From positions 1 through 36,654 of the IMG/VR virus record IMGVR_UViG_3300042342_000200: a stretch of 36,654 bases of DNA; one strand, 5' to 3'. A program made the translations under genes and the position numbers. The first letter of the stretch is position 1, and the number at the start of each line of letters is the position of its first letter. This document shows positions 3,955 through 35,780 of this stretch, piece after piece. Below the pieces are notes generated by a model, which made no database searches, was not told where the DNA came from, and saw only the letters and a program-made list of their open reading frames with translations. Source of the stretch: a virus (lineage: Duplodnaviria > Caudoviricetes).

Positions 3955-4596
3955 ATGTCAAATCTCGCAACTTTCTCTTCGGCAAATCTGCCAGCAGTCT
4001 CCACCCTCTCCACCGCATTGCGTTCGCTTGAACAAGGCGCAGGCACATCGGGCGTCGTCATCCTGAAAATGGACAAGACCGGCCACTGGGTGTTTGGTGC
4101 TGACCAGACTGAAGTCGAAGACGACTCTACTTGGGCCGTCAATCCTTTTTCTTTTGTTCACGGCTTTATCGCCTGGGGCGACGGTGAAGTGCTTGGCGAG
4201 AAGATGACCGGTGTGCAGCATCCCCTGCCAGAGCTTGACCAAGCGCCTCCCGGCGCCAAGCGCGGCTGGGAGACACAGATCGGCATGTCGTTGAAGTGCC
4301 TCGTCGGTGAGGACAAGGACATGGAAGCACGCTTTACCACGACCTCGGTCGGCGGCAAGAAGGCCGTGCAGGCATTGGGCGTTGCCATCGCCACGCAAGT
4401 GGAGAAGGACCAGACCAAGCCTGTGGCCATCGTGCGCCTGAAGAAGGACCACTACGTCCACAAGTCCTACGGCCGCATCTACACCCCGGTGTTTGAGATC
4501 GTGGAGTGGGCCAGCATGGACGGTGCAGCTGAAGCGCCAGTGGCTGAAGAAGCTGAGGCTGCACCAGCTGCTGGCCGTCGTCGTCGCGCGGCCTAA
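3955..4596 (+). CDS. Putative single-stranded DNA-binding/annealing protein
   Basis: Position between DUF2800 nuclease and PolA; aromatic beta-rich core, flexible Ala/Glu tail; AAGGA RBS. Confidence 0.55.
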   Translation: MSNLATFSSANLPAVSTLSTALRSLEQGAGTSGVVILKMDKTGHWVFGADQTEVEDDSTWAVNPFSFVHGFIAWGDGEVLGEKMTGVQHPLPELDQAPPGAKRGWETQIGMSLKCLVGEDKDMEARFTTTSVGGKKAVQALGVAIATQVEKDQTKPVAIVRLKKDHYVHKSYGRIYTPVFEIVEWASMDGAAEAPVAEEAEAAPAAGRRRRAA

Positions 4597-4604
4597 GTGA
4601 AATC

Positions 4605-4686
4605 GGGGCCGAAAGCGGATGCTGTCAGCGTGGTGTATTGCAATGTACGGACGCCGTGCCACCGACAGACGCAGCGAGTAGGCCCC
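4605..4686 (+). ncRNA. Putative structured cis-RNA (long hairpin with GAA/AGUA loop-E-like motif)
   Basis: GGGGCC/GGCCCC closing stem, GAA opposite AGTA, then GC/GC, TGC/GCA, TGTC/GACA and GTGGT/GCCAC helices; no U-tract. Confidence 0.55.
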
Positions 4687-4707
4687 ACCTATAAAGTAAA
4701 GTACAGT

Positions 4708-5409
4708 ATGAAACACGTTATTGGATTGAGCGGCGGTAAAGACTCCACAGCGCTTGCGCTGCGTTTGATGGAAGTCGAGCCGCGTGAATACGAACTGATC
4801 TGCAACGCCACCGGCAACGAGTTGCCCGAGATGGTTGAGCACTGGGCCAAGCTGGAGCGTATGCTCGGCCTGCCCATCAAGAAAGTCGGCCACACAACTG
4901 ATCTGTATGGCCTGATCGACCAAATGCAAATGCTGCCCAACTTCCGCGCCCGTTGGTGCACGCGCATCCTGAAGATCGAACCCACTATCGAATACTTTGA
5001 AACGCTGCCCGAAGGGTCAGTGCTTTACGTTGGCCTGCGCGCTGATGAAGAAGCCCGGCGCGGCATCTACGGCGAAGACATGAAGATCCGCTTCCCGATG
5101 CGTGAGTGGGGATGGAACGAAGCCGACGTGTGGAAGTACCTCGGCGAGCGTGGCGTGACGATCCCCCGCCGCACAGACTGCGCCGTGTGCCCTTACCAGC
5201 GTCTGGGTGAGTGGCGCGACCTCTGGCGTGACTACCCCGAAGAGTACGCCAAGGGCGTGGCTGTCGAAGAGAAGCTGGGCCACACGTTTCGGTCACCGCA
5301 GCGCGACAACTGGCCTGCCTCGCTCAAAGACTTGGCCGTCGAGTTTGAGAAAGGCCGCAAGATTCGCGGTGACGGTAACGCCCCGACTTGCCGGGTGTGC
5401 TCACTATGA
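4708..5409 (+). CDS. PP-loop (PAPS reductase/DndC-like) family protein, probable Fe-S cluster
   Basis: SGGKDS PP-loop, RWCTRILKIEP, GLRADE, DCAVCP, C-terminal CRVC; ATG at 4708. Confidence 0.85.
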   Translation: MKHVIGLSGGKDSTALALRLMEVEPREYELICNATGNELPEMVEHWAKLERMLGLPIKKVGHTTDLYGLIDQMQMLPNFRARWCTRILKIEPTIEYFETLPEGSVLYVGLRADEEARRGIYGEDMKIRFPMREWGWNEADVWKYLGERGVTIPRRTDCAVCPYQRLGEWRDLWRDYPEEYAKGVAVEEKLGHTFRSPQRDNWPASLKDLAVEFEKGRKIRGDGNAPTCRVCSL

Positions 5410-14502: not shown

Positions 14503-14654
14503 TGCCACTCGTCAAATCACCCTCAAAAGAGGCATTTCGCAAGAACGTCAAGGCCGAAGTGGCTGCGGGTAAACCCGTAAAGCAAGCCGTTGCGATTGCT
14601 TACTCTGTCAAGCGTGAAGCTGCTAAAAAACCAACAATGAAGACCAAAAAATGA
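14502..14654 (+). CDS. Small basic protein (50 aa, MPLVKSPSKEAFRKNV...KQAVAIAYS)
   Basis: Read manually; TGATG and ATGA overlaps on both sides. Confidence 0.7.
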   Translation: MPLVKSPSKEAFRKNVKAEVAAGKPVKQAVAIAYSVKREAAKKPTMKTKK

Positions 14655-14899
14655 GCCTCCAAGCCCTGCAAGACTGCCTGATCGTGCGCCCAGACATGGA
14701 GAAACACGAGTTGTTTATCCTGTTGAGACAGAAACAAACTGGCACGGGTGTGGTAATCTCCGTTGGACCTGAAGCCAAGGACGTAAAAGTCGGCGACAAG
14801 GTGCTATTTGGTGATTCCATCGGACAAGACCTAAAATATGAGGGTGACAACCTTCTGGTCATGAGGGAATCACACACCCTCGGAGTATTTGACGCATGA
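14651..14899 (+). CDS. groES: GroES/Cpn10-like co-chaperonin
   Basis: LQALQDCLIVRP, GVVISVGP, DVKVGDKVLF, LLVMRE..LG motifs. Confidence 0.85.
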   Translation: MSLQALQDCLIVRPDMEKHELFILLRQKQTGTGVVISVGPEAKDVKVGDKVLFGDSIGQDLKYEGDNLLVMRESHTLGVFDA

Positions 14900-17082
14900 A
14901 AGACACCACCGGAATCGTAGCCGCAGCAAATGTGGCAAAAAACGGACCAAACTCGTCAAAAAGCGGTTCCGAGGAAATTCTGACCGTTGCCCGTTCACGT
15001 TTGAACACAGCGATGACTGCGTTTTCCGAGACACGCGAAGACGAACTTGACGATTTGCGGTTCTACGCAGGCTCTCCAGACAACCAGTGGCAGTGGCCCG
15101 CTGATGTGCTCCAGACCCGTGGCTCTTTGCAGGGCCAAACGATCAATGCCCGCCCCTGCCTGACCATCAACAAGCTGCCGCAGCACGTTCATCAAGTAAC
15201 GAACGAGCAGCGCATGAACCGCCCTGGCATCAAGGTGATCCCGGCTGACGACAAGGCCGATGTGGACATGGCAGACGTGTTCAACGGCGTGATTCGGCAC
15301 ATCGAGTACATCTCGGACGCTGACGTGGCCTACGACACCGCCTGCGAAAACCAAGTGTCCTACGGCGAAGGCTATATCCGGGTGCTGACTGAGTATTGCG
15401 ACGACAAGTCGTTCGATCAGGACATCAAGATCGGGCGCATCCGCAACAGTTTCAGCGTCTACATGGACCCTTTGATCCAAGACCCCGCAGGCGCAGACGC
15501 CCGCTGGTGCTTTATTACGGAAGACATCCCCAAAACTGAGTACGAGCGTTTGTACCCCGATGCAGCGCCTATCAGCACCCTCATGAGCCTTGGCGTGGGC
15601 GATCAGTCCATCGCCCAGTGGATCGGTGAGAACACCATCCGCATTGCTGAGTATTTCTACATTGAGTACGAGAAGCACACGCTCAACCTGTACCCTGGCA
15701 ACCAGACTGCGTTCAGCGGTACGCCCGAGGACAAGATGCTGCGCGAAATGTTTGGCAAGCCGATCCGCACCCGCGAAGCTGACCGCAAAAAGGTCAAGTG
15801 GTGCAAGATCAACGGCTACGACATCCTTGAAGAACGCGATTGGGCTGGCTCCTACATCCCCGTGGTGCGCGTGGTCGGTAACGAGTTTGAGGTGGACGGC
15901 CAGATGTACGTGTCGGGCTTGGTGCGCAACGCCAAGGATGCCCAGCGCATGTACAACTACTGGGTGTCGCAGGAAGCTGAAATGCTGGCGCTGGCCCCCA
16001 AAGCCCCGTTCATCGGGTACGGCGGGCAGTTTGAAGGCTACGAGCAGCAGTGGAAGACTGCCAACACAAACAACTGGCCTTACCTTGAGGTCAATCCAGA
16101 CGTTACAGACGGCCAAGGCGCTGTGTTGCCACTACCCCAGCGGGCACAGCCTCCAATGGCCTCCAGCGGCCTGCTGCAAGCCAAGGCGGGTGCTGCTGAA
16201 GACATCAAGTCGGCCACCGGCCAATACAACGCATCGCTGGGCATGACCAGCAACGAGCGTTCTGGCAAAGCCATCCTTGCGCGTCAGCGTGAGGGCGACA
16301 TCGGCACTTACCACTACGTTGACAACTTGGCCCGTGCGATCCGTCACATTGGCCGTCAACTTGTGGACCTGATCCCCAAGATTTACGACACCGAGCGCAT
16401 CGCCCGCATCATTGGCGAAGATGGTGAGCCATCGACCGTCAAGATGAACCCAGGCCAGCAAGAGCCGGTCAAGCGGATCGTGGACCAAGAAGGCGTGTTG
16501 ATCGAGAAGATCTACAACCCCGGCGTTGGCAAGTACGATGTGCGCGTGATCACCGGCCCAGGCTACGCTACCAAGCGTCAAGAGGCTTTGGAAAGCATGG
16601 CCCAGTTGCTGCAAGGCAACCCACAGTTGTGGCAAGTCGCTGGCGACCTGTTTGTCAAGAACATGGACTGGCCCGGTGCCCAAGACCTTGCCAAGCGGTT
16701 CAAGAAAACCATTGACCCCAAAGTGTTGGCCGATGATGACGATCCAGCCTTGGCCGCTGCCAACCAGCAGATGGAGGCGATGGCCGCTGAGATGGAGAAT
16801 ATGTTCCAGATGTTGCAAAACGTCAACAAGAGCATGGAAGTCCGTGACTTGGAAATCAAGGAACAGGCCAACCAAATCAAGGCATTTGATGCTGAGACTA
16901 AGCGTATCAGCGCCGTGCAGGCTGGTATGACTGAGCAGCAGATTCAAGACATCGCTATGGGTGTTGTGGCGGCTGCGATGGAAAGCAACGACAATATGGT
17001 CATGATGAATGAGCAGCGTCAGATGCCAGAAATGCAGCCTGAGATGATGCCACCCCAAGGAGAGATAAATGAAATGCGCTGA
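14896..17082 (+). CDS. Portal protein, P22-like
   Basis: 728 aa; FY.G.QW, RPCLTINKL, GLVRNAKDAQRMYN, SGKAILARQ, Gln-rich C-terminal barrel. Confidence 0.92.
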   Translation: MKDTTGIVAAANVAKNGPNSSKSGSEEILTVARSRLNTAMTAFSETREDELDDLRFYAGSPDNQWQWPADVLQTRGSLQGQTINARPCLTINKLPQHVHQVTNEQRMNRPGIKVIPADDKADVDMADVFNGVIRHIEYISDADVAYDTACENQVSYGEGYIRVLTEYCDDKSFDQDIKIGRIRNSFSVYMDPLIQDPAGADARWCFITEDIPKTEYERLYPDAAPISTLMSLGVGDQSIAQWIGENTIRIAEYFYIEYEKHTLNLYPGNQTAFSGTPEDKMLREMFGKPIRTREADRKKVKWCKINGYDILEERDWAGSYIPVVRVVGNEFEVDGQMYVSGLVRNAKDAQRMYNYWVSQEAEMLALAPKAPFIGYGGQFEGYEQQWKTANTNNWPYLEVNPDVTDGQGAVLPLPQRAQPPMASSGLLQAKAGAAEDIKSATGQYNASLGMTSNERSGKAILARQREGDIGTYHYVDNLARAIRHIGRQLVDLIPKIYDTERIARIIGEDGEPSTVKMNPGQQEPVKRIVDQEGVLIEKIYNPGVGKYDVRVITGPGYATKRQEALESMAQLLQGNPQLWQVAGDLFVKNMDWPGAQDLAKRFKKTIDPKVLADDDDPALAAANQQMEAMAAEMENMFQMLQNVNKSMEVRDLEIKEQANQIKAFDAETKRISAVQAGMTEQQIQDIAMGVVAAAMESNDNMVMMNEQRQMPEMQPEMMPPQGEINEMR

Positions 17083-17431
17083 TTTTGTAGGCGAACTGTT
17101 CCTGGCCCGTGACGTGGCCCACTCGGTTCACTTGAACACCCGCAGCTTTTCCAAACACATGGCGCTGAACACGTTCTATGACGGGGTGATTGACTTGGCC
17201 GACAAGTTTGCCGAGGCGTATCAAGGCCGTCATGGTCTAATTGGACCCATCAGCTTGATGAGTGCCAAGAAGACCACAAACATCATTGAGTTTCTGGAGC
17301 AGTCCCTTAAAGACATTGAGGATATGCGGTACGAGGTGGTGAGCAAAACCGACACCCCGATCCAGAACATCATTGATGAAATCGTTGGGCTTTATTTGGC
17401 AACGCTCTATAAATTGAAATTCTTGGCATAA
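17069..17431 (+). CDS. Ferritin/Dps-like four-helix protein
   Basis: HSVHLNT..F..HMAL..FYD...D..AE..QG pattern resembling the Dps helix pair; GGAG RBS. Confidence 0.65.
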   Translation: MKCADFVGELFLARDVAHSVHLNTRSFSKHMALNTFYDGVIDLADKFAEAYQGRHGLIGPISLMSAKKTTNIIEFLEQSLKDIEDMRYEVVSKTDTPIQNIIDEIVGLYLATLYKLKFLA

Positions 17432-35015: not shown

Positions 35016-35151
35016 CTTTAATCCTTTCTTCTGTTGAAAATCGGTGCAAGTTTCCGCACTCGTATCTACGTGTCACCAAGTTGTCTATCTTGCGGGTGCG
35101 TGTCTCTTTCACTGTTGTCCACGATCCACAGTGCGGGCAAGTCATGCTCAT
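34921..35151 (-). CDS. Zinc-ribbon protein (Ogr/Delta- or NrdR-N-like)
   Basis: CPHCG...ETR...RRYEC.N.HRFST. Confidence 0.7.
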   Translation of the reverse strand: MSMTCPHCGSWTTVKETRTRKIDNLVTRRYECGNLHRFSTEERIKDDELLRRLRELQSRPGLPSPGGESWAAYEIR

Positions 35152-35780
35152 AGCCGTTCCTGAATGTCGTAGAACCAGTCGTCACCAGCGGACCACTTGC
35201 GTGACCCATCGACAGTGTAAAAGTCCTTGGCCGCTTGGAAGTCGGGGAACTTGACTTCCGCAGGAATTAGGCTCTGGTCGTACCACAAGCACCTGTTGTT
35301 GGGCTGCGTGGCAAACTGGCCGTTCTCAAGTCGAATGAAATTAAACGACTTGTGCTCCTCGGCCTGCTCCGTAAAGCCCGTGTCAGCGTCCATGCCGTCA
35401 GCGCAAAAGTCCACCGTGAACAGGTAGCGCCCGTGGTGCCACTGCTTATCCTTGCCCAAGAACTTGACGCCCAGGTTGCGCAGACCAATCTTCTCGCACA
35501 CCGTGAAGCGGTAGCCCATGCAGTCCCACAGTTGCAGGGTGTCGATGGGCAGGTCACCATCATGGTCCTCACGCCACACATAAGCGTGTAAGGGCAGCTT
35601 GTCGTACAGAGCGCCGTATGCGGGCAGCAGCGACTCGATGCGGAACACTTGGCCGCGCAGCGCCTTGATGCTGACCCAGATGGCAGGCTCCAACTCGCCG
35701 TGGCCTTTGGTGTGGTTGTACAAGAACTCACGGCGCACAAAGCACTTGAGTGGTGGCAGGGATGCGACGATGTAGCTCAT
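35148..35780 (-). CDS. Conserved-looking hypothetical phage protein (210 aa, aromatic rich)
   Basis: ATGA coupling on both sides; genome-typical codon usage. Confidence 0.8.
   Translation of the reverse strand: MSYIVASLPPLKCFVRREFLYNHTKGHGELEPAIWVSIKALRGQVFRIESLLPAYGALYDKLPLHAYVWREDHDGDLPIDTLQLWDCMGYRFTVCEKIGLRNLGVKFLGKDKQWHHGRYLFTVDFCADGMDADTGFTEQAEEHKSFNFIRLENGQFATQPNNRCLWYDQSLIPAEVKFPDFQAAKDFYTVDGSRKWSAGDDWFYDIQERL

Follow-up and report, generated by a model that had tools for sequence, protein, structure and literature searches.

Only a few coliphages are known to encode small RNAs that are matured by host RNase P. Passages of PMC5499578 name 4.5S RNA, phi80 M3, P4 CI and P1/P7 C4 as hairpin substrates of the enzyme, and in bacterial RNase P a 3' RCCA pairs with the GGU of L15 (passages of PMC4919922). 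Herein, we analysed a hairpin in the IMG/VR record IMGVR_UViG_3300042342_000200, whose 36,654 nucleotides are called the window below. The window copy shows three features of 4.5S/C4/CI-type RNase P substrates, namely a stem that starts with G, an unpaired 5' leader and an unpaired 3' RCC. We conclude that the element is real and widespread and is very probably a structured RNA, and that it is probably uncatalogued.

Results

The locus

The record is a 36.7-kb virus with genes for a podovirus-like head, portal and ejection, and lake metagenomes contain DNA near-identical to the window. The replication block runs in the order DUF2800 exonuclease, ORF 3955-4596, PAPS-reductase-like gene, PolA and primase. 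A preliminary description had pointed to a 111-nt gap before a PP-loop gene, without a U-tract and without a clear Shine-Dalgarno sequence ahead of the start codon. All three points were confirmed in the sequence. The gap (4597-4707) extends from the stop of ORF 3955-4596 to ATG 4708, and the gene that begins there is of the PAPS-reductase/PP-loop type (PF01507). Pattern and covariance-model searches found no second copy of the element in the window. The features of the locus are as follows.

3955..4596, plus strand: upstream gene for a 213-aa protein, likely an OB-fold single-stranded-DNA-binding (SSB) protein; the element begins 8 nt after its stop
4597..4604, plus strand: A/U-rich unpaired leader; predicted RNase P cut at C4604/G4605
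4605..4610, plus strand: 5' strand of closing stem P1, partner 4681-4686; covarying, and outside the main queries
4611..4614, plus strand: GAAA, 5' strand of a bulged-G (sarcin-ricin/loop-E type) loop, facing GAGUA at 4676-4680; kept in 104/117
4615..4616, plus strand: putative 2-bp GC/GC helix with 4674-4675; C in 103/105, no covariation
4617..4621, plus strand: GGAUG, 5' strand of the second loop, facing ACGCA at 4669-4673; 5x5, and 5x4 in about a third; predicted binding surface
4622..4626, plus strand: 5' strand of the inner stem, partner 4664-4668; 90% of cells paired and 4/5 pairs with two-sided changes, the purine/pyrimidine class of two pairs having been fixed by the query
4627..4663, plus strand: variable apical hairpin ("cargo tip"), which differs freely between near-identical phages (L517, L520, L522)
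4664..4686, plus strand: 3' strands of the inner stem, ACGCA, GC, GAGUA and P1
4687..4690, plus strand: unpaired ACC(U) tail, predicted RNase P/stable-RNA 3'-end determinant; an A/U-rich spacer then runs to 4707
4708..5409, plus strand: PAPS-reductase-like PP-loop gene, which may or may not be present between the element and PolA; not the element's partner

The frame of the PP-loop ORF (4597-5409) is in frame with the upstream gene, prolongs its frame without a stop and is open through the element, with a single TAA between the two. Elsewhere in the window we noted accessory genes, namely a GroES-like gene (14651-14899), a "starvation-inducible regulator"-like gene (17069-17431) and a gene labelled "ferredoxin" (35148-35780). 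Upstream of the replication block, the divergent minus-strand ORFs 1732-2322 and 2300-2617 resemble, by inspection, genes for a DNA methylase-like protein and a VRR-NUC-like nuclease.

The AlphaFold model of the upstream protein has a pLDDT of 71. SSBs lead its Foldseek matches in the PDB, but with E values of at least 0.027, and the best named SSB in BFVD has an E of 2.9e-4. With VIA-align, the PhiC31 RDF (Z 6.7), the BRCA2 OB fold (Z 4.2) and gp32 (Z 3.9) lead with weak scores. These comparisons are weak but consistent with one another and suggest that the 213-aa protein may be an SSB-type OB fold. PHROG 9528 labels the family as "nucleotidyltransferase", which is doubtful given its position and predicted fold. 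The protein has an arginine-rich C-terminus in place of an acidic one, and its homologues number more than 6,500.

Conserved fold

The outer stem proposed in the preliminary description (GGGGCC 4605-4610 with GGCCCC 4681-4686) was seen, as was the GAA/AGUA loop, whose bulged-G/loop-E register is correct. First, GAA and GAGUA were both kept in 104 of the 117 distinct matches of a query that left them out. Second, the three innermost positions of the outer stem, also absent from the query, pair in 102/104 sequences, as G-C, C-G, U-A and others. Thus, homologues that retain GAA/AGUA exist, and the flanking stem covaries. A bulged-G register consists of a sheared G-A, an A-U, the bulged G and an A-A beside the helix, and the motif tolerates A for G at the sheared position. 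The main variant in the family is this change of G to A (9/117). From the established motif geometry, the GAAA/GAGUA loop is predicted to form the same non-canonical pairs.

The inner part of the hairpin had been read as a UGC/GCA helix with two staggered 3-nt bulges (GGA and GAC), and covariation speaks against this reading. When the inner positions of the query were left free (105 distinct sequences, of which 1 with another fold was removed and 3 gave ties), position 18 (C4622) changed 6 times, each time with compensation at position 64 (G4668), as U-A in 3, G-C in 2 and A-U in 1, whereas position 67 compensated 0/6. The helix with staggered bulges is unsupported because C4622 covaries with G4668 and because the supposed G17-C68 pair is often mismatched (13/104). 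On this alignment, GGAUG/ACGCA, read earlier as the "staggered bulges", forms a second internal loop that is nearly invariant. It has a five-nt form in 67 sequences and a four-nt form in 34 (3 ties), and G17/A65 is swapped to A/G in 3. The order of the core is therefore the closing stem, the 4x5 bulged-G loop, two G-C pairs, the 5x5/5x4 loop GGAUG/(A)YGCA, the inner stem and a free tip. The tip is free in both length and sequence, and the apical GUGGU/GCCAC helix described earlier differs from copy to copy and is unconserved.

The covariation score of the whole revised structure was 0.475, compared with 0.139 for shuffled data and 0.07-0.123 for slid registers, where all scores are inflated by related sequences and the query itself partly determined two inner pairs. 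The folding energy was not above chance (z -0.75; 42/200 shuffles fold as well). Two further motifs were considered and rejected. The central helix between the bulges of a bulge-helix-bulge splice motif is contradicted by the C4622-G4668 covariation, and a k-turn register is contradicted or does not fit.

The 3' limit of the element is the unpaired ACC at 4687-4689. No intrinsic terminator was called at the element, whose trailer consists of ACC and then mixed A/U without a U-run after the GC hairpin. The earlier statement that this is not a terminator is thus supported.

Family size, hosts and catalogues

A metagenome search and a covariance model, both proposed in the preliminary description, revealed a large family with a covarying outer stem. 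The two-half pattern occurs in an estimated 1,500 IMG/VR stretches (at least 120 among the matches listed) and an estimated 1,200 metagenome stretches, and 381 distinct cores were collected. The covariance model gave the window copy 64 bits and found 63 matches in 60 long loci, with one copy per locus in 57/60.

In bacterial genomes, the exact pattern gave 66 matches, of which 25 scored at least 32 bits; the other 41 lacked the fold and were treated as chance. Nineteen of the 25 best-scoring cellular copies are from Betaproteobacteria/Burkholderiales, and the remaining 6 lie in MAG or unclassified contigs of other labels that are possibly misbinned. The neighbours of cellular copies belong to PHROG families at 11/12 tested loci (54/96 ORFs scanned). 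As a core host gene the element was not found; a shallow scan of 151 host-family genomes (31 candidates scored per genome) gave 2 strong matches and 3 further weak ones (about 22 bits), one of them in the unpublished genome G150, which supports none of our claims. In the rnpB and 4.5S loci of hosts, the model detected nothing resembling the element.

No Rfam 15 family matched, in agreement with the earlier statement that the element could not be assigned to a family. At the gathering score there were 0 matches in the window, and a search of 4500-4800 at E<=10 likewise gave 0. The element also had no match in 20 homologous short loci, and 20 longer loci gave 0 matches. BLAST against cultured phages returned one uncultured spring phage and chance rows only. 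There were 0 tRNA genes near copies in 60 loci. In a Noviherbaspirillum MAG, a divergent copy (L305) directly precedes a tRNA-like array.

In the literature, titles and abstract openings held no description of the motif. The core strings were not found in the 8 supplementary files of Weinberg 2010 (PMC2864571), in which gapped alignments could hide them, and the text passages of Weinberg 2017 (PMC5737381), taken apart from its motif alignments, do not describe the motif. Because Fremin 2023 mined IMG/VR intergenic regions, as stated in part of PMC10690425, that set may well include an unnamed model of this motif. The motif is thus probably, but not certainly, new. The literature examined, largely titles and parts of texts, contained no match to the organisation described below or to its RNase P reading.

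An exchangeable slot after SSB-type genes

Among the 80 relatives closest to the upstream gene, 63 distinct loci could be read after removal of 9 duplicates, 5 loci that were too short and 3 without the stop. The element was present in 8/63, 7 by pattern and one (L558) in a form with an extended tip. Other relatives, some with identical flanks, fill this slot differently: L523 and L525 have a 24-nt UUCG hairpin, and at least five unrelated structured inserts were seen (L518, L545/L561/L588, L549, L572 and L579). Elsewhere the slot contains long double-stranded hairpins, terminators or nothing. The long hairpins would be of the RNase III-substrate type. In an RNA-library contig, the tip and loops are replaced by 11 letters.

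The preliminary description had proposed a cis-regulatory RNA, processing site or small ncRNA that controls the PP-loop/PolA genes, with SAM or PAPS among the candidate ligands. A processing site or small ncRNA fits our results, and control of the PP-loop/PolA genes does not. The downstream genes of the copies are unrelated to each other, and 0/69 downstream ORFs of other copies matched PAPS_reduct. The gene and the element are also separable, as PolA comes directly after the element in L517, L520 and L521, and L536, L563 and L588 have the PP-loop gene behind the same upstream gene but lack the element. Given that the slot contents are swapped and that the PP-loop gene is optional and found without the element, we regard the element as exchangeable cargo and not as a regulator of the next gene. 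Judged from these arrangements, its link is to the 3' end of the upstream gene and to promoters, and not to the downstream gene.

Across the family, the element follows the stop of an ORF of at least 45 aa in 100 of 123 distinct long-flank loci, 77 of the 100 at 5-8 nt; the ORF calls came from a simple heuristic and some are expected to be spurious. The upstream proteins belong to many unrelated families. Among family representatives with a database SSB label, there are three upstream families with 25 loci (PHROG 18154/7364; DUF669/PHROG 6015; Enc34 ssDNA-binding). Further SSB-type families are a canonical SSB recognised by inspection (3 loci), the family of the window (5) and four unlabelled families with acidic tails (26). 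SSB-type upstream genes thus total about 59/123, of which only 25 carry a database SSB label on their family representatives. RecT-like genes also occur upstream of copies. Terminator-like hairpins follow some copies (L004-L006, L008 and L027).

Several side observations were made on these neighbourhoods. In 11 loci, including L002, L019, L021, L048, L052 and L072, an ORF of about 49 aa with a signal-peptide-like start and six cysteines lies between the SSB gene and the element. In L246 and L274 (2/56 upstream proteins scanned), the genes directly upstream of the element are of anti-defence types, Acb2/Tad1-hairpin and Tad2-like. A recurring pseudoknot-like module without an Rfam match lies directly 3' of the element in L001, L007, L035 and L040 and is followed by another hairpin; its place near SSB recalls STAXI. 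In L531-L537, L541-L547, L591 and L596, a long double-stranded hairpin with a conserved loop follows the SSB-like stop and reaches with its base into the next ribosome site; it may serve RNase III-type processing or control the translation of PolA.

Related modules were also seen. In L310-L389, and also in L020, L026, L053, L068 and L007, we found 47 distinct sibling modules that keep the closing stem, the GAAAG/GAGUA loop and the ACC tail and differ in their interiors; the ACC tail formed part of one query in this search. They often stand in tandem, 2-4 in a row, behind SSB-type genes. L028, L038, L059, L066, L074, L037 and L271 contain long arrays without genes, built of repeated structured modules that have common opening and closing motifs and variable interiors; these arrays received no Rfam or tRNA call.

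Ends of the RNA

An unpaired RCC directly follows the stem in 118/196 copies strictly, and in 147/196 if one terminal pair opens, against a background of 2.5% per position; U or A comes next. The first nucleotide of the stem is G in 140/196 copies, and the preceding one is C in 109 of those 140. ACC or GCC also follows unrelated cargos in the slot (L518, the minimal UUCG hairpin of L523/L525, L545/L561/L588, L549 and L572). In the five carrier genomes inspected, the host 4.5S RNA ends with stem-ACC-UUU in 3 and stem-CCC in 2, and all five have a class A rnpB. The single alignment of host RNase P RNA that was inspected shows the GGU of L15 intact.

A second group of copies appears to start at promoters. 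A -10-like hexamer lies 6-7 nt before the stem in 20/387 copies, compared with 0-5 at any other spacing, and several of these have a -35-like box. The predicted transcription start of such copies is the nucleotide at which RNase P would cut the others. The 127 tips on the sense strand contain 17 GNRA loops (7.9 in shuffles), 19 T-loop-like loops (8.5) and 4 DNA-type triloops (2.8), a modest enrichment over shuffles that were not hairpin-controlled. Taken together, the RCC tails, promoter starts and tip loops favour an RNA, and one mature product reached by two routes. We consider it very probable that the element is RNA rather than DNA. Four RNA libraries were covered as contigs only, so that depth and gaps carry no weight; one contig, from a relative, spans 4330-4712 and may be DNA.

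Some results count against the RNase P reading. The tail is mostly ACCU (77/118) and not ACCA, and RCC is missing in 49-78 of 196 copies. CC ends may serve exonuclease stopping alone, and RCC may mark such stopping instead of RNase P. The leader of host 4.5S RNA may be very short, since a -10-like hexamer lies close to its 5' end. In addition, a cut at 4605 would leave the 3' end of the SSB message unprotected, which looks costly.

Discussion

Our preferred, still tentative reading is that the element is an accessory phage small RNA that would be cut by host RNase P from the transcript of the SSB region and whose double loop would bind and titrate a conserved host protein. RNase P would cut at the first G of the stem (4605), and the 3' side would be cut in the A/U-rich spacer and then trimmed to CC. 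The promoter-started and the stop-following copies would then give the same RNA of about 85 nt, and this RNA would be made abundantly, since SSB transcripts are abundant. It would act in trans on one host RNA-binding protein, either as a decoy or as a ligand, and would be an optional "RNA moron"; this is the weakest step. The parts of this reading differ in strength. A discrete matured small RNA is probable, and maturation by RNase P specifically is somewhat favoured. A protein binder acting in trans is a tentative proposal that may well prove wrong. We infer the decoy or ligand role from sequence fixed only in the two loops and from the narrow host range (Burkholderiales); a trans-acting protein binder is further favoured by the lack of an antisense match of the tips and by the dispensability of the element in relatives.

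The serious rival is a cis role on the SSB message, which we judge possible but unlikely. Here the hairpin would stay attached, or be cut only to uncouple the genes, and its loops would recruit a host factor or RNA polymerase, so as to stabilise the mRNA, set the ratio of SSB to downstream products or antiterminate like HK022 put RNA. The position of 100/123 copies after a stop, 77 of them at 5-8 nt and many after SSB-type genes of unrelated families, agrees with such a role, and the SSB-type link itself (about 59/123) fits it equally well. The long double-stranded hairpins or terminators that fill the slot of relatives suggest that the slot itself has a processing or termination role, and terminator-like hairpins lie downstream of some copies. 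However, close relatives manage with a plain 24-nt hairpin and the same tail, or with no gap, which argues that the loops are not needed for the job of the slot. Moreover, copies occur at promoters and in RNA arrays far from SSB, and the downstream genes are unrelated.

We consider it improbable that the element is a self-cleaving or metabolite-binding RNA, in which the invariant loops would form a catalytic or ligand pocket (a ribozyme of a new class, or an RNA that sequesters a nucleotide signal). The unpaired core is unusually invariant and comprises two adjacent internal loops, and Tad1/Tad2-like genes lie directly upstream in 2/56 scanned upstream proteins. Nevertheless, Rfam gave no ribozyme or riboswitch match, and neither a pseudoknot nor a junction was seen. 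A stacked rod that contains a bulged-G loop more typically serves as a surface for protein binding.

An antisense RNA of the C4/CI type, with a fixed scaffold and a variable tip that pairs with phage mRNA, is still less probable. A variable tip on a constant scaffold that is likely matured by RNase P is the architecture of C4/CI, and the tips differ between near-identical phages. Yet for 45 tips and loci of 8-37 kb, the longest perfect antisense match averaged 9.02 nt in a tip's own locus and 8.80 nt elsewhere (p 0.10), so no own-genome target rose above the control among perfect matches, mostly within 10 kb. C4 was also not matched in the Rfam searches.

That the element acts as single-stranded DNA, for example as a site of primosome assembly next to the SSB gene, is very improbable. 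The association with SSB and replication genes would suit such a role, and a ColE1 stretch behind rop, in a putative primosome-site region, shows both halves of the inner core. Against this, the models score neither this stretch nor the phiX174 F-G intergenic region, and among the five ColE1-like plasmids inspected, 3 keep the 3' half without the 5' half in place and 2 lack the 3' half pattern. There is thus no similarity to the ColE1/phiX174-type site as a co-conserved unit, and RNA is indicated by the copies that start at promoters, by the RCC tails and by the UUCG/GNRA loops. Equally hard to sustain are a riboswitch or translational leader that serves the PP-loop and PolA genes and a signal for readthrough from the upstream ORF into the PP-loop ORF: the element stands directly upstream of ATG 4708, which lacks a Shine-Dalgarno sequence, the frame 4597-5409 is open and an SD-ATG follows 53/123 copies, but none of the 69 downstream ORFs is PAPS-reductase-like, gene and element occur apart, no expression platform is conserved, and readthrough as a family feature is rejected by frames that stop early in 57/60 loci.

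Returning to the accessory small RNA, a broader proposal can be made, which we offer as speculation and think unlikely as it stands. Burkholderiales phages would carry a modular "RNA moron" system, in which a standard socket of G-stem and RCC behind the most abundant early gene would be cut by host RNase P and so free interchangeable small RNAs. The loop-E family, the commonest cargo seen, would be a decoy against a host protein, e.g., an anti-phage nuclease or sensor. If so, SSB 3' ends would be a map to many undiscovered RNA counter-defence factors. The family itself spans an estimated 1,500 viral stretches without an Rfam model, and the socket is common to several other unannotated, exchanged RNAs. 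If the small-RNA reading is true, a stem with RCC just after SSB stops would provide a simple rule for finding functional RNAs of phages, the family would offer many natural sequences for aligning a new double-loop RNA motif, and the cultured lysogen genera (Cupriavidus, Comamonas) would suit direct tests of cleavage, partner and phenotype.

Comparison with known systems

The 3' strand of the element may resemble the EF-G-binding stretch of 4.5S RNA. Like bacterial 4.5S (SRP) RNA (RF00169), the element is a long irregular hairpin with G at +1 and a stem followed by ACC, with a U-run in the Comamonadaceae hosts. Unlike 4.5S RNA, it does not match SRP domain IV, and the likeness is limited to the ends. 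It has the sarcin-ricin/bulged-G motif, with GAA facing AGUA in register next to a helix and conserved, in a three-dimensional form that is predicted only. In contrast to the ribosomal sarcin-ricin loop, it has no adjacent GAGA tetraloop and is therefore no mimic of that loop; the motif is a building block and not a family.

P1/P7 C4 (RF01695), P4 CI and phi80 M3 are likewise phage-encoded, hairpin-like and located inside a longer transcript, according to passages of PMC5499578; for the element, 5' maturation by host RNase P is predicted. It differs from these RNAs in having no Rfam match and no antisense target found, in being a single rod with two invariant internal loops and in occupying an exchangeable slot after SSB-type genes. 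In phi80, the best score of the element model was 12.6 bits, and not at M3.

Two RNAs in the parts of Weinberg 2010 (PMC2864571) covered here invite comparison. STAXI occurs near SSB genes, as the element does, but is a repeated pseudoknot and is in Rfam without a match to the element. Burkholderiales-1 has the host order in common with the element, but the alignment rows seen differ in sequence and fold. Finally, although the element has no CRISPR-repeat or tRNA likeness, RNA-based phage counter-defence (Racr, pseudo-antitoxin RNAs and phage tRNAs) relies, in the portions of the literature covered, on accessory, exchangeable RNAs that bind or spare a host component, and the element is accessory and exchangeable too.
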